A DNA stretch of 20,000 nucleotides, taken from IMG/VR virus record IMGVR_UViG_3300029305_007310, positions 54,256 to 74,255 of that record. The stretch is one strand, 5' to 3'. The notes beneath the pieces are model-generated. The model was not told the DNA's origin, did no database searches, and was given only the letters and a program-made list of their open reading frames with translations. Shown here piece after piece: positions 3,935 to 18,626 of the stretch. The position numbers and the translations under genes are program-made. How positions within the stretch are numbered: the first letter of the stretch is position 1; the number at the start of each line of letters is the position of its first letter. Origin of the DNA: an uncultured virus (IMG/VR IMGVR_UViG_3300029305_007310) (taxonomy: Duplodnaviria; Heunggongvirae; Uroviricota; Caudoviricetes).

Positions 3935-4939
3935 ATGTCGTACAAACATTTTATACCACAAAATGTCGCGCCATTGGGAGTAAGACGTATCGGCATCTAT
4001 AACGCACAGGGAAACCGAGTAGGGCAAATCCCGCTCGGCTCCCTTACACCACCGAATCCGCACAAAAAGCTGTACAGTTTCGGTGCTCTGTCTGATGTGC
4101 ATGTTGTGTACGTTACGGCGGCTACGGATTTTGAAAGAGCGTTGGATTATATGAACGAAAACGAGGACGTGGCTTTTACCTGCATTGCTGGCGATCTTAC
4201 AGATGACGGAACGGCTGCACAGCTTGCCCAGTATAAAGCGGTTGTTGATGCTCATTCGCCTGATACGCCTGTATACGCCATTGCGGGAAACCATGAAAAG
4301 TATTCTGAACAACCGACGTTAATTCAACAGTACACAGGACAGCCCTTGTATTACAGTTTCGCGCATGGCGATGACGTGTTCCTGATGTGCGGATGCTATT
4401 CGTGGTCAAACGATGGTGTGTTCACAAAAGGCTATCTGCAATGGATTTACGAAACGCTTGAAGCCAACAGGAACAAGCGGTGCTTTATCTTTGAGCATGT
4501 GTTCCCTTGGGGTGACAGCGGAAATCCGGGCGAACTGTATCACTTCGATATGTTCACCGGAACGAAGGGGAGTGTATTTCAATCGCTTCTCCGACACTAT
4601 AAGAACACGGTGTTGTTTCACGGACATTCTCACACAAAGTTCGAGCTGCAAAGCGTGGATGATAAGGCGAATTACAGTGATGCACTTGATTATCGGTCTG
4701 TACATATTCCGAGCCTTGCTGTTCCTCGCGATATTGGCGATGGCGAACTTGCGAATATCTACTCTGAATCCGAGGGCTATGTCGTAGATGTGTACAAAGA
4801 CGGTATCCATCTTCGCGGCAGGGACTTTGTGAAGGGAGAGTTTCTCCCGATTGCGTCTTACTGGATTGATACCACGTTGCAGACCGTTGAGGCAGGAACC
4901 TACACCGATCCCACAGGGGTCATCATGACACAACCCTAA
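3935..4939 (+). CDS. Calcineurin-like metallophosphoesterase
   Basis: All five motifs present: SDVH, GDLTD, GNHE, EH, GHSH. RBS aaggtggtga. Confidence 0.9.
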   Translation: MSYKHFIPQNVAPLGVRRIGIYNAQGNRVGQIPLGSLTPPNPHKKLYSFGALSDVHVVYVTAATDFERALDYMNENEDVAFTCIAGDLTDDGTAAQLAQYKAVVDAHSPDTPVYAIAGNHEKYSEQPTLIQQYTGQPLYYSFAHGDDVFLMCGCYSWSNDGVFTKGYLQWIYETLEANRNKRCFIFEHVFPWGDSGNPGELYHFDMFTGTKGSVFQSLLRHYKNTVLFHGHSHTKFELQSVDDKANYSDALDYRSVHIPSLAVPRDIGDGELANIYSESEGYVVDVYKDGIHLRGRDFVKGEFLPIASYWIDTTLQTVEAGTYTDPTGVIMTQP

Positions 4940-4963
4940 ATTGAAGAAAGGCGAGTGAAATAA

Positions 4964-6760
4964 ATGGCTTTTTTAGGAAACGAAGCATTGCAACGACTTT
5001 GGGCGCACACGATCTCAAGGATCAGCTCGAAGGCCGATGAGATAAAAACATGGGTATCACAACAAAAAGTAAGCGCGTTTGAAAACGATGCTGGGTATCT
5101 GACTGAGCACCAGGACATCAGCGGCAAACTGGACGCGGACAAACTGCCAGAGGCTATCAACAACGCTCTTGCTCAGGCGGCGGAATCTGGGGAGTTTAAT
5201 GGGGAACCGGGTTATTCGCCGGTGCGCGGAACGGACTACTGGACACCTGCCGATCAGGAAGCAATCACGGAGGAAGTCAGTAATCAGCTATCTTTGGAGA
5301 TTGGGGTCGTGCCAGAATACGTCAAGGCTGAAGCGGAATCTGTGATCGAGCGTGTGAGTGCCGCGCAGGCTGGCAGGACGTTCACCTTTGCGGCAATCAC
5401 TGATTTGCACTATGGCAACGGCGGTTATACGGACGGCGTACTGCATTCATGTCAGGCTCTCAAATACATTGACGAGCGGCTGAAACTGGATGCTGTGGCT
5501 GTGCTGGGTGACTACACTGACGGATATCCTGCGGACGGGCTGGCGAATGCGTTCGGTGATTTCCGTGCTGTAAATGCAGTGCTGAATGATCTGCGGTTTG
5601 CGCCGAATCTGCGCACTCAAGGCAATCATGACTACTATGCAGACAATGCGCCAAAAATCCGCAGGCACATCCAGGCGTACTCCGAGGATGTTGTATGGGG
5701 CGATATTGCTGGCGGCTACTACCACAAGGATTTCGATGCGTACAAGCTGCGTGTTATTGTCCTCAACACTACCGAGACAGGGAATGCAAACATTGACTGC
5801 ACGACCGCACAGTATCAGTGGTTTGCAGACACACTCGACCTGAGCGCCAAAGAAGACGCTGAAGAATGGCAAATCCTTGTTCTGTCCCATCATCCGCTGG
5901 ACTGGTATCACATTGATGAAAGCTATGCGCTTGCCAGAATCGCCAACGCCTATCGTGAGGGAACAGCCTATTCCATCACCGGAGTTTCCTGCGATTTCTC
6001 CGACGGCAAAAATGCTGCTGTACTTATCGGCAACATTCACGGCCATATCCACAATCTGCTTGTGGACAAGGTGCATATCGGCAATGTGGTAAACGGCGTT
6101 AAGAGCGAGGTAGACCGTATGGCAACGCCCGAATCCTGCATCAACCGTGCGAACCAGTACACGGGCGCATGGCAGGAAGAAACGAGCTATCACAAGACCA
6201 TCGGCACGGCAGAAGATACGTCATTTGTGATCTACTGCATTGACCTCGACACCTACACGATACAGGCTGTGTGCTATGGCGCAGGCTATGACAGGACACT
6301 GACGTATTATGTGGCTAAAAACGGATATACAAATCAGATCCCTATTTCCGTTGATTCCGCCGGTGCTGTGTATAACGGGACGGGATACAAGGCCGATTAC
6401 CGTTTAAACTCATCGGGCACAGAAACGGAACTTGCTGGTACGGGTGTTACCGGCTTTATTCCGGTCAAGCGACTTGATGTAGTGCGGATGGAAAACATTT
6501 CCTACAAGCCCGGTGTCGATAGTACTGGCGACTATATTGCACTGTATGATTCCGACTTTACGAAAACGGTAACAATCAAGTCTCCATATGTTGCATCTCA
6601 TGACTATGTACTCGGCTCCAGGGTGCTGGATGATGACGGCAACTTGATTCAGTTTACAATGTCCGACAGCGCAGACGCTGGCCATGCGTATATGCGAGTA
6701 TCTTGCGCTGGCCTTGGCGCTGAATCGATCATCACAGTGAACGAGGAGATCACAGAATAA
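4964..6760 (+). CDS. Tail-associated metallophosphoesterase (fibre-like N-terminus, MPE domain, C-terminal module)
   Basis: Phage fibre-type linker motifs KVSAFENDAGYLTEHQDISGK and GYSPVRGTDYWT. MPE motifs TDLH, GDYTD, GNHD, SHHP, GHIH. Confidence 0.85.
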   Translation: MAFLGNEALQRLWAHTISRISSKADEIKTWVSQQKVSAFENDAGYLTEHQDISGKLDADKLPEAINNALAQAAESGEFNGEPGYSPVRGTDYWTPADQEAITEEVSNQLSLEIGVVPEYVKAEAESVIERVSAAQAGRTFTFAAITDLHYGNGGYTDGVLHSCQALKYIDERLKLDAVAVLGDYTDGYPADGLANAFGDFRAVNAVLNDLRFAPNLRTQGNHDYYADNAPKIRRHIQAYSEDVVWGDIAGGYYHKDFDAYKLRVIVLNTTETGNANIDCTTAQYQWFADTLDLSAKEDAEEWQILVLSHHPLDWYHIDESYALARIANAYREGTAYSITGVSCDFSDGKNAAVLIGNIHGHIHNLLVDKVHIGNVVNGVKSEVDRMATPESCINRANQYTGAWQEETSYHKTIGTAEDTSFVIYCIDLDTYTIQAVCYGAGYDRTLTYYVAKNGYTNQIPISVDSAGAVYNGTGYKADYRLNSSGTETELAGTGVTGFIPVKRLDVVRMENISYKPGVDSTGDYIALYDSDFTKTVTIKSPYVASHDYVLGSRVLDDDGNLIQFTMSDSADAGHAYMRVSCAGLGAESIITVNEEITE

Positions 6761-11299: not shown

Positions 11300-11620
11300 T
11301 CAATAAACGCGGTATAGAATATCGTTGTTATAGACTGCATTACACAAACGTTTAAGCAGTTTTTCCTTTTCTTCTACGGGGAGAGGAGTATGAGACACGA
11401 TCATTCTCATGGCATTGGGCAAGCCCATCCAATCGTGATAATTGCTGGCTTCAAGATGATCTTCTAGGGTTTTCACATAGCCAGGGAAGCCTTCTTCTTG
11501 AAGTTCTGGGTCATCTTTTGCCCAACGTTCCCAGCCTTTTGCTAAATCAGGAAGCTTATCAGCGGGACATGGATCATTGGATTGGTCATATGGGAAATTG
11601 GAAGTAATGTTATCGGTCAT
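11300..11620 (-). CDS. Hypothetical phage protein
   Basis: 106-aa ORF with RBS ggagg, overlapping the nrdG stop (ATGA). Confidence 0.7.
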   Translation of the reverse strand: MTDNITSNFPYDQSNDPCPADKLPDLAKGWERWAKDDPELQEEGFPGYVKTLEDHLEASNYHDWMGLPNAMRMIVSHTPLPVEEKEKLLKRLCNAVYNNDILYRVY

Positions 11621-12180
11621 GCTGGATTATCCTCCTGTGTGTGGTGAATTACGATCTCTCCTTTTTCAAGACTCTTTTGTACGTCGATAATTCTTTGGTT
11701 AGAACTGCCTCGGAAACGGAGGGTTTTATTTGCCATGGATTGAATAAAGGGCCCATCTACGAGCACATTGGTAAGAAGTAAAATAGGGTGGATAAACAGA
11801 TTTGAAGCATTGTATAGCTCTCCAAAAGTGGCTCCAGTATAGATCCATATATTATATTTTGTGCGGTTTTTGACACGGGCATGGATTTCTTCAAGGAGGT
11901 GTGTTAAGAAGAAGAAGGTTTTTTCAGGGCAAAAAAACGGGTCTCCACCAGATAGGGTAATTCCCTTTAAGAAGGGGCGTTTAACGATTTCTTCTGCGAT
12001 ATTTTCAATTGTTTGTGTGGTAATTGGAACACCAAAATTGGGGTCGTGGGATTCAGGATTGTGGCAACCAGGGCAGTTGTGAGGGCAACCACTAAGATAG
12101 ATAGTTGCCCTCACGCCCTCGCCATCTACCAGACTCTCATAATTGACCCCTGCTAAATAGGGGTATAGAGTAGTAGACAA
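11617..12180 (-). CDS. nrdG: Anaerobic ribonucleotide reductase activating protein (radical SAM)
   Basis: SLVDGEGVR, CPHNCPGCHN (CxxxCxxC), GITLSGGDP, VLVDGPF, FRGSSNQR. Directly downstream of nrdD. Confidence 0.95.
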   Translation of the reverse strand: MSTTLYPYLAGVNYESLVDGEGVRATIYLSGCPHNCPGCHNPESHDPNFGVPITTQTIENIAEEIVKRPFLKGITLSGGDPFFCPEKTFFFLTHLLEEIHARVKNRTKYNIWIYTGATFGELYNASNLFIHPILLLTNVLVDGPFIQSMANKTLRFRGSSNQRIIDVQKSLEKGEIVIHHTQEDNPA

Positions 12181-12195
12181 AGAGTATAAGCCTCC

Positions 12196-12675
12196 TTAAA
12201 CAGGCGTGTATGCAGTATGTTTTACACGATCTTTAACTTCTGCCTGTTTGCCGTCATTAAAGCGACGATAATCTGAGCTAAGATAGCCAGTTACACGGCG
12301 TAGCTGCGTGATATTCTGACTTTCACACTCAGGACATTCAGCATCAAATTCACTTTGATAGCCGCAGTCATTACAGGTGTCAATAGGGAAGTTAAAAGCA
12401 AGATAGGGGATATCAAGATCCATGGCGTAATTGATGATTGCCTCAATTGCGTCAGGATTGTTCATAAAGGTAGATTCACATTCGATATATGTGATTGTGC
12501 CGCCAGTACAAAGCTTGGTGAAAGGCGCCTCGATACGAAGCTTTTCATAAATAGATACCTTTTCCCATACGGGTACATGGAAAGAGTTTGTAAGATATTC
12601 ACGATCTGTTACATTGGGGATAACGCCATACTGATCACGGAGAACAGTTAGCGCAGTTCTGCAGAGATTCTCTGC
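12196..12675 (-). CDS. nrdD: Class III ribonucleotide reductase, exon 2 (AENLC... to stop, 159 aa)
   Basis: YLTNSFHVPV, zinc site CNDC...CPEC, glycyl-radical motif RRVTGYL. Joins exon 1 in frame to give YATP-AENLC. Confidence 0.93.
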   Translation of the reverse strand, partial: AENLCRTALTVLRDQYGVIPNVTDREYLTNSFHVPVWEKVSIYEKLRIEAPFTKLCTGGTITYIECESTFMNNPDAIEAIINYAMDLDIPYLAFNFPIDTCNDCGYQSEFDAECPECESQNITQLRRVTGYLSSDYRRFNDGKQAEVKDRVKHTAYTPV

Positions 12676-13533
12676 CACTTTGACTATATTTTCATCCTTT
12701 TTATCAAAGGAGTCTGCTCTTTCGTCCAATAAAGGACTACTCTACTCACTCATTGGTTTTCGATAGTCGATTCACATTTACAAGACAAGTATTCTTCTTT
12801 AGTGCAATAACGGAAATAATAAGGCTTTCTAACGGGCCTTTTATATTTGCATTGACGGGAAATAGTTGTTTTTTCGATTCCAGTAGCCGAGTTAGCCTCG
12901 CAAATTGAACCCCAGATACCTAGAAGCTCATTTGTGTAACGGTCGAACATTTTGACTGGATGAGATTGAGAATCGTTAACTCCTTTGTCATTGATCATTA
13001 GACCGTCATCGACTGCTTTTTGTGTATTTTCTTGGGCGGTAGTCCAATATAAATTTTCCACCCTGTTATCACTTTTGATGTTGTTTTTATGTCCAACATA
13101 GGGAAGCTTATCTGGATTGGGGATAAAAGCTTCGGCGACAAGGCGATGAATTCTTCTGGAGACCAAACCCTTTTTGCCTTTATATTGAATACCGCAAGAC
13201 ATATACCCATAAACAGAGTTTAGAGCTTTTTTATAAAGGACTCTTGGATGATTGTTGCGATGCTCTATAGCATATACAGACCCGTCAATATCTATCCAAT
13301 GCTCGTAAGCACCGCGAATTAGTTTTGCTGTTTTTGGTAGCTCTATATTTATTCACCTCTTTTTTTGTTTGTTTTACTTGTCTTGATTTAGCACAGGATT
13401 CCACAAAGGTTCCCTGTTAGCACTGCCGCAAGTCGCCATTTCCTGCGATTGACTTTCGCCCGGCAGCACACCCTTTAAGGTTAAGCAGATTTTTCATTGC
13501 ATGTTACCATGCAAGCCCCCACAGAAAATTCTC
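12676..13533 (-). mobile_element. Group I self-splicing intron (858 nt) in nrdD
   Basis: 5' exon ends in U (ACCCCU) pairing with intron GGGGG (P1). UUUUCUGU pairs with 3' exon GCAGAGAA (P10). Intron ends in G. Core-like elements GCUAACAGGGAA, AAUCCUGUGCUAAAUC, UCGACUAUC and AAUAUAGUC. Confidence 0.92.
12750..13346 (-). CDS. Intron-encoded HNH homing endonuclease (I-HmuI-like, C-terminal NUMOD1-like domain)
   Basis: IHRLVAEAFIPNP...VGHKNNIKSDNRVENLYW...EN HNH motif and C-terminal GIWGSICEANSATGI...ISRQCK. Frame is open 48 codons upstream of ATG 13202 to an ATA placed 7 nt after GAGGTG. Confidence 0.85.
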   Translation of the reverse strand: MELPKTAKLIRGAYEHWIDIDGSVYAIEHRNNHPRVLYKKALNSVYGYMSCGIQYKGKKGLVSRRIHRLVAEAFIPNPDKLPYVGHKNNIKSDNRVENLYWTTAQENTQKAVDDGLMINDKGVNDSQSHPVKMFDRYTNELLGIWGSICEANSATGIEKTTISRQCKYKRPVRKPYYFRYCTKEEYLSCKCESTIENQ

Positions 13534-15279
13534 AGGGGTAGCGTAACAGGAGAAATTCAGCCCATTCTTTTCACTTGCATGAGCCGCGAACTCGTTGATC
13601 GCTTGAACAACTTGATAAGCAAATTCACGGGCTTCAAGGCTATTTACATGGTTGGCGCCAAATAATGCTTCACACATTTCAGCTACCCCGATAAAGCCGA
13701 TGGCAAATGTATTGTGCTTGAGCGCCTCATATACATTATCAACGCACTTATCAGCATCTTTAATGACGCCGTTTTCATACATAAAGGGCGCTGCAGCCGG
13801 AGACTGTTTGGCCATAATGGCAAAACGTTCAAGATGAGCTTTTTCTACAAGATCAAGGGTGGATTCAAAGGCTTCCCAGAATCCCGTAAGATTGGGTTTA
13901 TCACGCTCACCAAGGCAAATACCATACTCGATACCAAGCTTGGGGAGAATGATAGTAATAGGAGTGTTATTACCACGTCCTATGCGGTTGTAGCCATAAC
14001 CATTGCGGTCATAGCCGATCATGGTCCTGCAGCCCATGGTACTAAAAATGGTATCAGGATCGTCAGGATCTTCATGAGCCTGAGACCAGTCGCCATTGCA
14101 AATATTGGGATATATGCGTTTGGACAACGACTTAATAGCGAGCTTTTTCAGGTCATAATTGGGATCGCCAGGAGCTCCATTAACCCCCTTCTTGTGAGAA
14201 AAGATGCCGATGGGGAAGATGGAGGTGACATGATTCTTACCTACGCCGTCTAGACTGGTTTCAAGAATCCAACGAGTTACAAGACGTCCTTCGGGAGAGG
14301 TGTCGCGTCCGTAGTTGATAGAGGTAAAGGGAACCTGCGACCCAGCTCTGGATTCGAGCGTATTAAGGTTATGGTACAAAGCCTGAGTGGCTTGCAAACC
14401 CTCACGTTCAAGCATTTCCATAGCATACTTCTTTGCTTTGGGGAAAAGATTGAACAGCTCGTCCTCAATGGAGAGATCATTTTCAATGCAGACTTTTTTG
14501 AAATCTTTATAAGAGCTTTCTTCAATTGTCTCGTTGTCAGGGTTTTCGAGGTATTTGATGCCATCGATAATATGAGAGTAAAAACTGCGCTTCACATAGG
14601 GAGCGAGATCGTAGTCCAAGTGGACACTGCCCACACCGCCATATTGGCATTGGGATTGCAACTGAAATGCTACTGCTACCAATTGGCATGCTGTGGAAAA
14701 ACTAGACGGTGGGCGAACATCGCAGTTGCGGGTTTTAAAACCTTGAGTGAAAAGACGCTTGAAGTCTAGCATGAGGCAATTGTGGGCACCAATATTGTAA
14801 TGATCCAGATCATGATGATAAATGCAACCATTTTTATGTCCATCGGCCACGTCTTTGCTCATGTTCTGGTCTAAGGCAATGCTTTTCTGGATTACAGTTG
14901 CGGCCTCATTTTTGCGACCGCCAAAAGAGCGTTCATCCACATTGGCATTAGCATTTTCTGTGGTCTCGCCCAAGGTTTTTTCTAAAACCTTTTTCATAAT
15001 CTCGTTGCGGAGATTTCTCTGCTTTGTTCTTTCAGCTCTATATAGGATATAACTCTTGGCAACATCCTTGCGATCAGAAGCCATGAGTTTTTCTTCAACC
15101 ATATCCTGAATAGCTTCTACCGATAGACGGCTGGGAATCAAATCGATCTCTTCTGCAATTTGATTGGCAAGTCTGATATCAACTGGGCCAGTTTCTTTCA
15201 TTGCGGCTAAAACCGCGTCTACAATTTTTGATGGATCAAAATCAACGATTCGTCCATCGCGCTTTACTACTTGTTCCAT
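13534..15279 (-). CDS. nrdD: Class III ribonucleotide reductase, exon 1 (582 aa; spliced product 741 aa)
   Basis: ATP cone (VVKRDGRIVDFD), YHHDLD, HNCL, QVPFTSINYG, MGCRT, NFSCYATP. Confidence 0.95.
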
Positions 15280-15330
15280 TTCTCAATCCTTTCTTTTGGT
15301 CGTATGAGGAATACAAACTGAGATAGGAAC
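15273..15330 (-). promoter_or_regulatory. mRNA hairpin sequestering the nrdD Shine-Dalgarno and start codon
   Basis: GUUCCUAUCUCAGUUU (15330-15315) can pair with GGAUUGAGAAAUGGAAC (15289-15273), with one bulge and one mismatch. Inner GUAU/AUAC stem. Folded by eye only. Confidence 0.6.
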
Positions 15331-15366
15331 AAAAACCGGGGGTGCTCTTGGTGATAGAATTGGCAT
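15283..15366 (-). CDS. Putative leader/arrest peptide of nrdD (MPILSPRAPPVFVPISVCIPHTTKRKD)
   Basis: RBS aaggagagtg. RAPP at codons 7-10. Stop is 3 nt before the nrdD ATG. Confidence 0.6.
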   Translation of the reverse strand: MPILSPRAPPVFVPISVCIPHTTKRKD

Positions 15367-15387
15367 CACTCTCCTTCGACGAAGATT

Positions 15388-15621
15388 TTAATTTAGTTTG
15401 AAATCTTTTTTATTAATTCTCCCGTGACGAGTACCATATTTTTCGATATTAAGATAATATATGTGTTTTTTTGACTCGAACCTTGCACAGAAAAACCAGC
15501 CGCTATCAAAATATTTACCTAAATGGATGTTATAAGTATGGGTTTCAAGGAAAAAGACATCCCATCCATGAGCCCTTTTTGTCCAGGGTGTATATGCTCT
15601 ACGCAAAATTTTAAGTTGCAT
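15388..15621 (-). CDS. Hypothetical aromatic-rich 77-aa protein
   Basis: In operon, RBS aaagga. Resembles the adjacent 77-aa ORF. Confidence 0.65.
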   Translation of the reverse strand: MQLKILRRAYTPWTKRAHGWDVFFLETHTYNIHLGKYFDSGWFFCARFESKKHIYYLNIEKYGTRHGRINKKDFKLN

Positions 15622-15624
15622 GTG

Positions 15625-15858
15625 TTAATCCTTTTTATTGATATACTTCCCTTTCATAAAACCGACTCCAGAAAAACGAGCGAACCAAACGGTTTCTTCC
15701 CATTGCCATTTCAAATAAATGAACCATTCTCCGCAGTCTGTGAACCAGTCAAAAAAGAAGTGCCAAGTACGGAAGCGAAGGATATCCCAGCCTTCCAGCT
15801 CACAATTATTATCAATGAGTGTGTAGTATCTATTTAAAAATTTAGGATAATGAGACAT
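15625..15858 (-). CDS. Hypothetical aromatic-rich 77-aa protein
   Basis: In operon, Trp/Phe-rich, overlaps the upstream gene end. Confidence 0.65.
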   Translation of the reverse strand: MSHYPKFLNRYYTLIDNNCELEGWDILRFRTWHFFFDWFTDCGEWFIYLKWQWEETVWFARFSGVGFMKGKYINKKD

Positions 15859-16318
15859 CTTTCAGCCCTTCTTTGGCTTTCATATACTCAATGCAATCGT
15901 TGATATAAAAAGCGGCCTTTTTGGCATCCTCAACAGGCTTTCCTTTGCGTTTAAGGCGCCAACAATATTTGATAACATTGCCAATGCAGAAGCCCTCGTA
16001 ACCATCCAGATCCTTGAGAACTTCTTTGAGGACTTCCTTACATTCATATTTTTCCAATGCATAGTGGGAAGGATGATTAACCATATCCACTACTTCAGGA
16101 GGCATGGGAAAGTCTTCCTGAATGGGATTGTCGCAGGGAATGTAGTCACCAAGACGATAACCTTTGGGAGCCGGTGCATTACTAGGGACTGCAGGATCTG
16201 TAAGCGTATTGGGTAAAATGGCACGGTCAGTATCTGTTGTTGTTCTATTAGAATACGTTAAATCCACTTCCTTTAATAAAGAAGGGCGCGGGACATAAGC
16301 AGCAATCATTTCACTCAT
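15842..16318 (-). CDS. DUF3310 protein (T7 gp1.7 nucleotide kinase / SaV-like family)
   Basis: DMVNHPSHY...GFCIGNVIKYCWR...KGKPVEDAKKAAFYI. Likely start is ATG 16318 (MSEM), overlapping the thyX end, not the track's 16537. Confidence 0.8.
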   Translation of the reverse strand: MSEMIAAYVPRPSLLKEVDLTYSNRTTTDTDRAILPNTLTDPAVPSNAPAPKGYRLGDYIPCDNPIQEDFPMPPEVVDMVNHPSHYALEKYECKEVLKEVLKDLDGYEGFCIGNVIKYCWRLKRKGKPVEDAKKAAFYINDCIEYMKAKEGLKDVSLS

Positions 16319-17066
16319 TCGTGCTCGCCTCTTCCTTGTTGTCCATCCATGTAGGCCATTCTTTAGGCACGACTTTAGGCGTCCAAGATTTAGACACATG
16401 GTAGACATCATCAAGCCTAGGGTGCATACCACAGGTGTCCTTTTTGCTTTCAGTGCAATAGGGATGCTTTTTGTCTTTTTCGCACTTTGGTACAAGCATG
16501 TCTTTAAAAGCATTGTCAGTTGCCATATTGAATTCATGAACCATTTGCCGGACTAGTTTGCGGATTTCCCATTGAGCGCGAGTACAAAGGCGCTCATGGC
16601 AAAGGTGGATGAACTCGCGAAGGTTGAAAGTTGCAATGAGGCTGCAACAGGCTGCATTAGGAAGGACAAAACGAGCGTCTTCTTGGGGTACACCTAACAA
16701 ACAAAGTTTGGTGTAATCGGCCAAAGCACGGGTCATAGAAGTTTGAAAAATTTGCCTAGCTTGTTCATTGTTTTCGATAGTGGGTGGTACAACAAACTGG
16801 AAGCCAGATTTGTAGGAAACATAGCGCTGACTTTCTACCGAGGGAGAAATAAGTCTATGTCTTGTCAATTGAGCCAATAGCACTCGGCTGACGCCTTCAA
16901 CACGGAAGGTAACAAAAACATGCTCTAAGATGCTATGATGACCACTGTTATAACAATGGCGTACAATGCGACCATCTAGGCTCGGGGTGGATTTGTAACA
17001 CATAGAGGCCGCTTCTTCTGCAGCCATTACAGGGTCGTTTGTGAACCGGGTTAGAAGTACTTTAAT
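16311..17066 (-). CDS. thyX: Flavin-dependent thymidylate synthase
   Basis: GHHSILEH, RHRx7S motif (RHRLISPSVES-QRY), EDARFVLPNA, ERLC..AQWEIR. ThyX-like N-terminus KVLLTRFTNDP extends upstream to an ATT codon at 17066 after aaggagatga. Confidence 0.95.
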   Translation of the reverse strand: MKVLLTRFTNDPVMAAEEAASMCYKSTPSLDGRIVRHCYNSGHHSILEHVFVTFRVEGVSRVLLAQLTRHRLISPSVESQRYVSYKSGFQFVVPPTIENNEQARQIFQTSMTRALADYTKLCLLGVPQEDARFVLPNAACCSLIATFNLREFIHLCHERLCTRAQWEIRKLVRQMVHEFNMATDNAFKDMLVPKCEKDKKHPYCTESKKDTCGMHPRLDDVYHVSKSWTPKVVPKEWPTWMDNKEEASTNE

Positions 17067-17216
17067 GGTTGGTCATCTCCTTATTTTTATTTTGAGTGCT
17101 GGCTAACCAATCAATGTGACCACATCCTTATTAGTTATTTTATAATCTTTTTGAGTAGGTACAAAACAAGATAGATACTTGGATTCTCAAGTATCCTTCA
17201 TTGTTTCGTTGAACTT

Positions 17217-17245
17217 ATTATACCACTAATACGGAACAAGTGCTA
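17217..17245 (-). promoter_or_regulatory. Extended -10 sigmaA-type promoter for the thyX-nrdD operon
   Basis: TGgTATAAT on the minus strand (17225-17217), with a weak -35 (TAGCAC) at 17-nt spacing. Confidence 0.5.
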
Positions 17246-17315
17246 TAGATAATATGGTATTATTTTTAGTAATATGACACATGTATAGGCACGATAAATC
17301 GCAATAAATTGCAAC

Positions 17316-18626
17316 TTAATAATACCCATAAAAATCATAAATGAAACCAGTTGAGAAGTGTGTTTTGCGCCTCAGCTGATAACATATATTGCCCATGCAC
17401 ATGCAAAGCGCCTGTTTGCCGCAGGAATGACATTTTTGAAAACAATGGTCGAGATGAAAGGCGATTCTCGGCAAAAGGCCCATATCCTCCAGCAGTGTGA
17501 ACAGCGGAAAAAAGATCGCCATTGGGGGCAGCATGACGGAAACAACCCAGGAAGTAACGCGGTAGATTCCATTGATAAGCAGATCCGTCAGCCATACCGG
17601 AGAAGAAATGCTTTGAAGAGAGGTTTGCAGGAGACTGCCAAGTCGGTTCAGCTGTTCGCTGAGCCATGCAGAAGGGACATTGGCGCCTTGAATGGTCAGG
17701 AAGAGAATGCCGCCAAGCAGTGCAATGCCTGTAAAAAGTGCAAACCACCTGCGGCAAAGAAGAGTGTCAAATACCAAGGATCCTTTTGCTTTTATGCGCC
17801 TTTCAGAAACTGCTGTCTGACAGAGCACTCGCGCCTGACGGTAGCTTTCGGCAATCAGCAAAGGCGCTATGCGTTCTTTCGGATATCCTGCTTTGAGCAA
17901 ATCCTTCTGGATGTTCTGAATCATTTGACAGATATGTGCATCCGGCTTCGAATGTGCAGTCAGCTTATCAATATAGGAAGCATCCGCAATCAAGGCACGC
18001 AAGGCAGCAAGGCGGCCGCTTCCGGAATGGACAACTTTTGGCGCAGAATGATTCAAACCGTTCATAAGGCTCTGAACAGCCTGTTCCATTTCCTGCGGAT
18101 ATACAAGCAAATCCTCGCGGCATTGTGCCGTAGAACAGGCCGTTTCGGCTGTTCGTTTCAGCAGTATGTCAAGACCGCATTTGCTGCGTGCACATATGCC
18201 AATCACGGGAATCTGCAAAAGCGCTTCCAACTTTTCGCAGTCAATGGATACACCGGCTTTCTGCGCCTCATCCATCATATTGATGCAAAGCACGGTGCGC
18301 GGACAGTTTTGAGCGATTTGCAAAGCGAGGTTCAGATTTCTTTCCAGCGACAGCGCATCGCAGACCACAATCACGGCGTCCGGATGCTCAAAGGTTAGAT
18401 AGTCGCTTGCCACAATTTCTTCCGCCGATCCGTTCAAAAGGGAATATGCACCGGGAAGATCGATCACTTCCCAGCGGATGTCTTTTGTCATCACACTTCC
18501 GCGCGCAACCTCCACCGTTTTTCCGGCCCAGTTCCCGGTATGCTGCTTTAAACCGGTTAATGCATTGAATACTGTGCTTTTGCCGACGTTTGGATTCCCG
18601 CACAAAGCAATTTTCAATGTTTTCAT
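17316..18626 (-). pseudogene. feoB: Ferrous iron transporter B, 5' part (412 codons) interrupted by the prophage, plus a 24-aa read-through tail
   Basis: G1 GNPNVGKST, HTGNWAGKTVE, DLPG, NMMD and VSVMLPPMAIFFPLFTLLED...RIAF. The expected FGC continuation and C-terminal membrane domain are absent. Confidence 0.9.
17380..17400. other. Prophage attachment junction (attL/attR) inside feoB
   Basis: FeoB homology stops after ...GKQALCMCMG (codon GGC at 17393-17391) and AT-rich unrelated sequence follows. Confidence 0.75.

Follow-up and report, generated by a model that had tools for sequence, protein, structure and literature searches.

The DNA analysed here, called the window throughout, is a 20,000-nucleotide (nt) stretch of an uncultured virus of the class Caudoviricetes (IMG/VR record IMGVR_UViG_3300029305_007310), and it forms the right end of that 74,255-nt record (G000). 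Encoded on its minus strand are thyX, a DUF3310 gene, two genes of 77 amino acids (aa) with no assigned function, nrdD for the anaerobic (class III) ribonucleotide reductase, nrdG, a dUTPase gene and an HD gene. Directly in front of nrdD lies a small open reading frame (ORF) with the sequence Arg-Ala-Pro-Pro (RAPP) near its N-terminus, and we report here that this leader likely works like a RAPP translational switch. The unannotated 27-codon ORF claimed in the original prediction is present (Table 1); its stop is separated from the nrdD ATG (15279) by 3 nt, and an in-frame GTG is found at 15369, ahead of the leader ATG. Its Shine-Dalgarno (SD) sequence had been called strong, which holds for the complementarity but not for the spacing from GGAG to ATG. 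The 27-aa product gave no match in Pfam, and no signal sequence or transmembrane segment was detected in it. Just six residues precede RAPP, in agreement with the earlier view that the N-terminus is too short for a membrane-pulling sensor. A longer record of the same phage, a gut prophage (G001, provirus class, 125,944 nt), is identical in the leader and in the NrdD N-terminal region.

Table 1. Features of the nrdD leader region and its surroundings, in window positions unless a record is named.
Feature	Position	Strand	Remarks
nrdG activase	11617..12180	-	immediately 3' of nrdD; TIGR02491 above cut-off
nrdD exon 2: glycyl radical domain	12196..12675	-	
Intervening sequence in nrdD, with HNH endonuclease ORF (13202-12750)	12676..13533	-	after YATP motif
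nrdD exon 1: ATP cone and class III ribonucleotide reductase	13534..15279	-	3' boundary inferred from uninterrupted relatives
3' arm of predicted stem: spacer, start codon, first nrdD codons	15270..15287	-	fold prediction
Leader ORF, 27 codons, MPILSPRAPPVFVPISVCIPHTTKRKD	15283..15366	-	codons 1-10 (MPILSPRAPP) constrained, tail free
nrdD SD AGAAAGGA	15287..15294	-	14 nt AGAAAGGATTGAGA same in L002
5' arm of predicted stem, pairs with nrdD start region	15317..15333	-	first 6-7 nt predicted to lie under a ribosome stalled at RAPP
RAPP codons, predicted stall site	15337..15348	-	Pro9 in P site, Pro10 in A site, by analogy with ApdA/ApdP (PMC12992588)
Leader SD-like GAAGGAGA	15370..15377	-	GGAG-to-ATG gap 4 nt; GGAG core invariant in 4 strain contigs
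Weak predicted hairpin on the leader's own SD	15370..15385	-	starts 3 nt after upstream stop; prediction only
77-aa gene, function not assigned, no Pfam/PHROG family	15388..15621	-	stop 22 nt before leader ATG; not at this place in L002
Second SD-led RAPP leader, MIIQSRAPPFVLIFKSYKLTIIGGAL-stop (MIIQSRAPP...)	G001:C1:17626-17546	-	L365, L379, L380; outside G000

In shuffled upstream regions, RAPP arose by chance with a probability of about 0.0004-0.0006 per region. The leader's RAPP is the sole one in all six frames of the 74-kb record G000, and neither RAPP nor RGPP occurs in the 112 long ORFs (31,228 aa) of the phage. Pro-Pro is encoded by 10 of 200 short SD-led ORFs in 129 kb, and only in two RAPP leaders, the present one and a second one described below, does Arg or His stand two residues before it.

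Strain variation was taken from 7 of 20 sequencing runs, all as assembled contigs. The complete difference list comes from four contigs of three runs, and for the other runs the differences are lower bounds, to be read as 'at least'; run X19 did not span the leader and X6 spanned part of it. Four sites vary within codons 1-10 (15361, 15346, 15343 and 15337), all of them synonymous third positions, with three inside RAPP (P 0.007-0.009) and two occurring in several runs. From codon 11 onward, five non-synonymous and three synonymous sites were found together with a +1 insertion after 15323, which among the differences listed was seen in one X8 contig, in X10 and in a loose end of X7. Read by hand from these differences, the shifted frame would stop at 15296 in the X8 contig and, barring further differences, at 15242 inside nrdD in X10. 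The leader stop shifts among haplotypes; therefore, completion of the ORF is not the object of selection. Judged from these contigs, the leader is under protein-level selection that is lost right after Pro10.

The only close relative with DNA is locus L002, whose NrdD is 80-82% identical. It carries an SD-led MNNIRKTNTRAPPR-stop ORF in another reading frame, overlapping the stop of a different upstream gene. All four RAPP codons differ (CGT GCC CCG CCT in L002 vs AGA GCA CCC CCG in the window), the ORF stops one codon after RAPP, and the distance from the end of Pro-Pro to nrdD is 43 nt in L002 and 57 nt in the window. The six residues before RAPP are constrained within strains but are unrelated to the nine of L002. 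The expectation of a conserved RAPP ORF upstream of phage nrdD genes was thus borne out in L002 but in none of 150 more distant upstream regions. Together these make up 152 distinct regions from five related-locus scans, with loci dropped (4 and 5) for a missing start or a short flank and relatives at 64-79% identity, including P0003 (77%), left out of the set. No RAPP was found upstream of nrdD in the next relatives (61-63%). On a quick tree built from P0003 and 77 of 138 loci, P0003 groups with the two RAPP loci in a small clade. When viral contigs were scanned for ATP-cone starts, RAPP plus GAT gave 33 loci, with an ATP cone only in the phage itself and the L002 contig; R[AG]PP plus GAC gave 120 loci in 29 of 64 parts, and H[AG]PP plus GAT gave 30, none of them with an ATP cone. 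The closest NrdD identities were 56% in a metagenome scan (21 of 64 parts), 53% in a genome collection and 41% among annotated phages, and a search of protein representatives yielded no closer relative.

Both the minimum-energy and the centroid folds contain a stem over the nrdD start (15333-15326/15277-15270 and 15323-15317/15287-15281). The segment had been claimed to pair with the nrdD SD and AUG. It does pair with the spacer, the G of AUG, codons 2-3 and the 3' edge of the SD; the rest of the SD is uncovered, and the A and U of AUG lie in an internal loop. Folding of the whole leader was no better than that of shuffles (z -0.60, 49/200 as good), and the stem region alone gave z -1.83, with 12/200 shuffles as good. 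The predicted cost of opening the nrdD start, 10.8 kcal/mol, ranks fifth among 144 related upstream regions (median 4.9). A modelled stall footprint reaching to +13 or +16 lowered it to 7.8 or 5.2 kcal/mol, close to that median, and this reduction of 3.0-5.6 kcal/mol supports, for this lineage, the proposed geometry in which a stall opens the start.

A second SD-led RAPP leader heads the replication cluster of this phage. In it, the RAPP codons form an 11-bp pairing with the 11 nt that precede the next ATG (z -4.06 and -4.26), and the leader stop overlaps that ATG. The leader is followed by a 135-aa gene with no assigned function, a phrog_2367 gene and a Sak4-like gene, and further along the same strand by genes for a DnaB-like helicase, primase and polymerase III alpha. 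In a relative (L381:1036-1113; phrog_2367 protein 87% identical), MIIQSRAPP is kept with one synonymous change, and two indels, both after RAPP, add up to minus 3. Twelve loci at 31-43% identity held no RAPP leader and one RSPP ORF. The pattern of SD, start and RAPP or RGPP was met in 1 of 48 other phage records (5.4 Mb), and control patterns hit 2; the one RAPP match, in G046, was rejected as the antisense of another gene's SD. A minus-strand tRNA cluster reading mostly A-ending codons (L372:2437-7581, equal to G001:22437-27581) is situated a few kb upstream of the second leader.

We lean slightly towards reading the nrdD leader as an arrest peptide without a sensor that holds the nrdD start open and thereby switches on translation, because the peptide is selected up to the second Pro and no further, neither the tail nor the stop is constrained, and in this lineage the predicted footprint covers the start of the stem; RAPP in L002 and the second leader described above also speak for it. 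The stall and which way it acts are drawn from ApdA, ApdP, SecM and CruR, and the stem and its weakening from folding predictions. RAPP stalls Bacillus subtilis ribosomes across many contexts and resists elongation factor P (EF-P), with the third and fourth motif codons in the P and A sites of the stalled ribosome (PMC12992588). A ribosome on the ten-codon peptide would be predicted to stall at Arg-Ala-Pro-Pro and, once parked, to pull open the lower half of the stem over the nrdD start in this lineage, allowing the anaerobic ribonucleotide reductase to be translated. Such a latch would need no ligand sensor. Its input would be the loading of a ribosome on the leader and its arrival at RAPP, for which coupling to the upstream gene, free ribosomes and charged tRNA are candidates. 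With one ribosome parked on each message nrdD would stay open, and in a lysogen transcripts without the leader start would be silent. Two inputs put forward earlier fared poorly: a metabolite is disfavoured because the residues before RAPP, which would have to form its pocket, are not conserved between the window and L002, and EF-P status ranks low, since long RAPP peptides resist EF-P (PMC12992588).

A number of observations weigh against a sensor-less latch. The stem had been expected to be conserved or to covary; L002 lacks it, its leader gave less stable folds than shuffles did (z +2.07), the model has its nrdD start accessible whether or not a ribosome stalls (2.3 kcal/mol), and compensatory changes, looked for in the strain contigs and this relative, were not found. 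In the window the upper stem persists under the modelled stall, a strain change at 15331 breaks a pair at the stem base, and the 5' arm is not significantly less variable than its unpaired neighbours (1/15 vs 7/32 variable sites, Fisher p 0.41). Regarding the peptide, the synonymous sites 15346 and 15343 depend on a single contig of depth 3.2, and comparing codons 1-10 with 11-27 by itself gives p 0.07. L002 is the single independent relative with RAPP before nrdD, 150 of the 152 distinct regions being without it. The leader SD sits close to its ATG. The motif by itself is insufficient and requires supporting N-terminal residues, as stated in PMC12992588, whereas here only six residues stand before RAPP. 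For the second leader, the modelled stall changed the opening cost from 10.6 to 9.0-10.2 kcal/mol in L379 and from 12.5 to 5.8-10.6 kcal/mol in L381; the start opens poorly because other pairings form, and the RAPP of this leader could be a by-product of an anti-SD arm.

Since the stem is missing in L002, the main rival to the latch is a RAPP stall that acts as a roadblock and not as a helix opener, keeping RNase J from degrading the nrdD-nrdG message 5'-to-3' or Rho from loading on it. This would account for RAPP being kept in L002 while the stem was lost, and it suits two candidate leaders described below, L118 and L474, which have AT-rich spacers, with the L118 start predicted largely open. 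In Bacillus subtilis, long stretches of mRNA downstream of stalled ribosomes are stabilised (PMC3997798), a spore-forming Bacillota is the apparent host (SpoIID/LytB gene; NrdD relatives mostly Clostridia), and a Rho-based action is known for CruR (PMC9426467). What the roadblock leaves unexplained is the high opening cost of the window (rank 5/144) and the perfect 11-bp pairing of the second leader, and we regard it as unlikely.

Another explanation is that the codons before RAPP test the tRNA pool, the stall being reached only with tRNAs that match the phage set, for instance after a host defence has cut the host tRNAs. G001 carries 14 tRNAs, including Pro-TGG, Leu-TAG, Ser-TGA, Arg-TCT and Ala-TGC, and among the pre-RAPP codons with a phage tRNA for that amino acid, all four in the window are exactly cognate (P 0.008 with the first codons of phage genes as reference), as are all four in L002 (P 0.01, scored with the G001 tRNA set). 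This test was, however, post hoc. Pro2 is CCT in all four fully listed contigs, AGG and GCG occur in one haplotype, a hairpin arm contains two of the matching codons, and cognate matches number only 1/2 in the second leader and 4/9 in the candidate leader L057. The scanned parts of G003 and G018 contained no tRNA genes, and hosts normally carry these tRNAs, which counts further against the idea; we find it distinctly improbable.

Under ordinary translational coupling, a ribosome would translate the leader to its end with no more than a pause at RAPP, melting the stem and terminating 3 nt short of nrdD. This would draw on the position of the window's leader stop, on the stop/ATG overlap of the second leader, which survives a net 3-nt deletion, and on the possibility that short N-termini fail to support full arrest (PMC12992588). 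The stop position is not kept, however, lying one codon past RAPP in L002 and being moved by the +1 insertion in strains, and coupling has no need of RAPP, yet RAPP is the conserved part; we hold this account to be highly unlikely. Coincidence, with a C-rich anti-SD happening to read x-Pro-Pro in an ORF without functional translation, has a precedent in the antisense SD of G046 and in the second leader, where the RAPP codons themselves make up the pairing arm and L381 has them unchanged, but seems very improbable, for in the nrdD leader the RAPP codons lie outside the pairing arm and change only synonymously, L002 spells RAPP in four other codons, and the shuffle probability is about 0.0005 per upstream region. 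These two readings fit worst.

RAPP arrest peptides with many catalogued targets beyond Sec are already known. Similar to ApdA, ApdP, ApcA and SecM, the nrdD leader has RAPP in a same-strand upstream ORF with constraint ending at the second Pro (PMC10951233 and PMC12992588), and here the motif is conserved at the protein level within one small clade. The likeness may extend to secM-secA in the predicted stem over the next start, for which a stall lowers the opening cost from 10.8 to 5.2-7.8 kcal/mol in the window but which L002 does not have. Unlike the nrdD leader, those four have a signal or membrane segment, place the motif after residue 100 and serve as Sec or YidC monitors. In the nrdD leader RAPP occupies codons 7-10, no sensor domain exists, the element is borne by a prophage and the target is the synthesis of deoxyribonucleoside triphosphates (dNTPs). 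The leader does not belong with the Sec and YidC monitors (SecM, MifM, ApcA, ApdA and ApdP), as it has no signal or transmembrane segment and the downstream genes, nrdD and nrdG, do not serve protein localisation. Another comparison is CruR (Bp2923, DUF2946) of Bordetella pertussis, a RAPP leader that is required for downstream gene expression and whose downstream genes are likewise unrelated to protein export; unlike the nrdD leader, CruR has 145 aa, senses copper via CXXC and acts through Rho-dependent termination (PMC9426467). The nrdD leader has no conserved Cys or His, and no Cys at all, before RAPP, and is not a leader of the CruR type.

Leaders before genes of many functions are also described in PMC12992588. 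They come from Streptomyces lividans, where one of seven tested small proteins with RAPP/RGPP lacks a localisation signal, and from a GTDB survey in which such leaders are reported to be absent in many Bacillota. Because this survey was built on annotated proteins, it likely misses ORFs of 14-27 codons; the main text and 10 supplement files of the paper hold no mention of phage, nrdD or ribonucleotide terms. The ermC stall sequence and the hbs SD, 5' mRNA stabilisers in the Gram-positive Bacillus subtilis, likewise hold a ribosome upstream that affects the downstream gene; unlike the nrdD leader, ermC stalling is macrolide-dependent and hbs uses an initiating ribosome (PMC3997798 and PMC5737220). 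In the literature, mostly open-access papers, we found neither a phage-encoded nor an nrdD-linked RAPP leader, and a RAPP-based mRNA stabiliser was not found there either.

NrdR-box control shares the target gene, nrdD, and differs in being transcriptional repression by a host protein. Scored against the NrdR-box consensus, five loci of related phages (L065, L070, L074, L090 and L130) have matches of 12-13/15 in the 150 nt before nrdD, and the window has 9/15 in that interval and 10/15 across 15280-17300. This comparison suggests that host repressor control may take the place of a leader peptide in the clade of those five loci.

Short SD-led ORFs with R/H-x-PP occur beyond the RAPP clade. Across 264 loci outside it (803 kb), 6 of 158 short SD-led ORFs have Pro-Pro and five of these read R/H-x-PP; by lineage the count is 3/4 (p 0.002) once L115 is dropped, whose RAPP ORF lies out of frame inside nrdD and was put down to chance. 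In a distant phage (47%; L118:1135-1164), MLYTHAPPY-stop lies 39 nt before nrdD and is preceded by a very strong SD, as a single example. An RPPP ORF lies one gene before nrdD at L057:753-869 (also in L060, L062 and L063), and an RSPP ORF, again a single example, lies 85 nt before a phrog_2367 gene at L474:615-674. The L057-group and L474 ORFs share W-x(3-5)-Y-R-x-P-P, are short and SD-led, and possibly represent another arrest-leader family. Searches of whole records (49-50) returned the HAPP leader and at least seven in-frame RxPP ORFs; among these seven, only the RPPP leaders are short and combine a good SD with a stall-permissive middle residue. RxPP and R/HxPP are named as strong stalling motifs in PMC10951233, which cites another study for this, and the HAPP, RPPP and RSPP lineages are scattered on the quick tree. 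We treat these ORFs as leads only. That large temperate phages of gut Clostridia repeatedly evolved minimal R/H-x-Pro-Pro leaders, jointly gating dNTP synthesis and the replisome with pre-stall codons that test the tRNA pool, strikes us as a doubtful proposition; if true, the phage would not commit to making DNA until translation works with the support of its own tRNAs.

If the stall at the nrdD leader is real, an arrest peptide of about ten codons, phage-encoded and without a sensor domain, would exist in a phylum where RAPP leaders are reported to be largely absent, and would be used twice in one genome, before dNTP supply and before the replisome cluster. Ribonucleotide reductase would then join the targets of nascent-peptide control, in a lineage without an NrdR-like box, and surveys of annotated proteins would be overlooking ultra-short arrest leaders. 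So small a natural system bears on the minimum of residues that RAPP needs and on how an arrest with nothing to pull on is regulated.

As for the wider setting, host-like genes begin at 17316 with a truncated feoB and a SpoIID/LytB gene, and NrdD relatives from named genomes are mostly from Clostridia. This gene and these relatives point to a spore-forming Bacillota as the host. At 17316-17360 feoB is cut at 436 aa, its tail is unrelated, and position 17353 holds 12 nt that match the left end of G001; a prophage attachment site inside feoB is likely on this evidence. A terminator-like hairpin at 17173-17196, scored on both strands, separates the phage thyX region from the host feoB fragment. 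Promoter-like sites were absent from 15270-15800, and the four terminator-like sites fall elsewhere.

The intervening sequence in nrdD is probably a group I intron; its boundaries follow the boundary rules for such introns. Rfam at the gathering threshold gave no matches in the window, neither for the leader nor for this intervening sequence. The nrdD of L002 lacks the window's intron, yet is interrupted elsewhere (after residue 416), and several NrdD relatives of about 410-420 aa are interrupted in the same manner as L002. On the plus strand at 3935-6760, two adjoining ORFs among the tail-associated genes give a motif impression of metallophosphoesterases.
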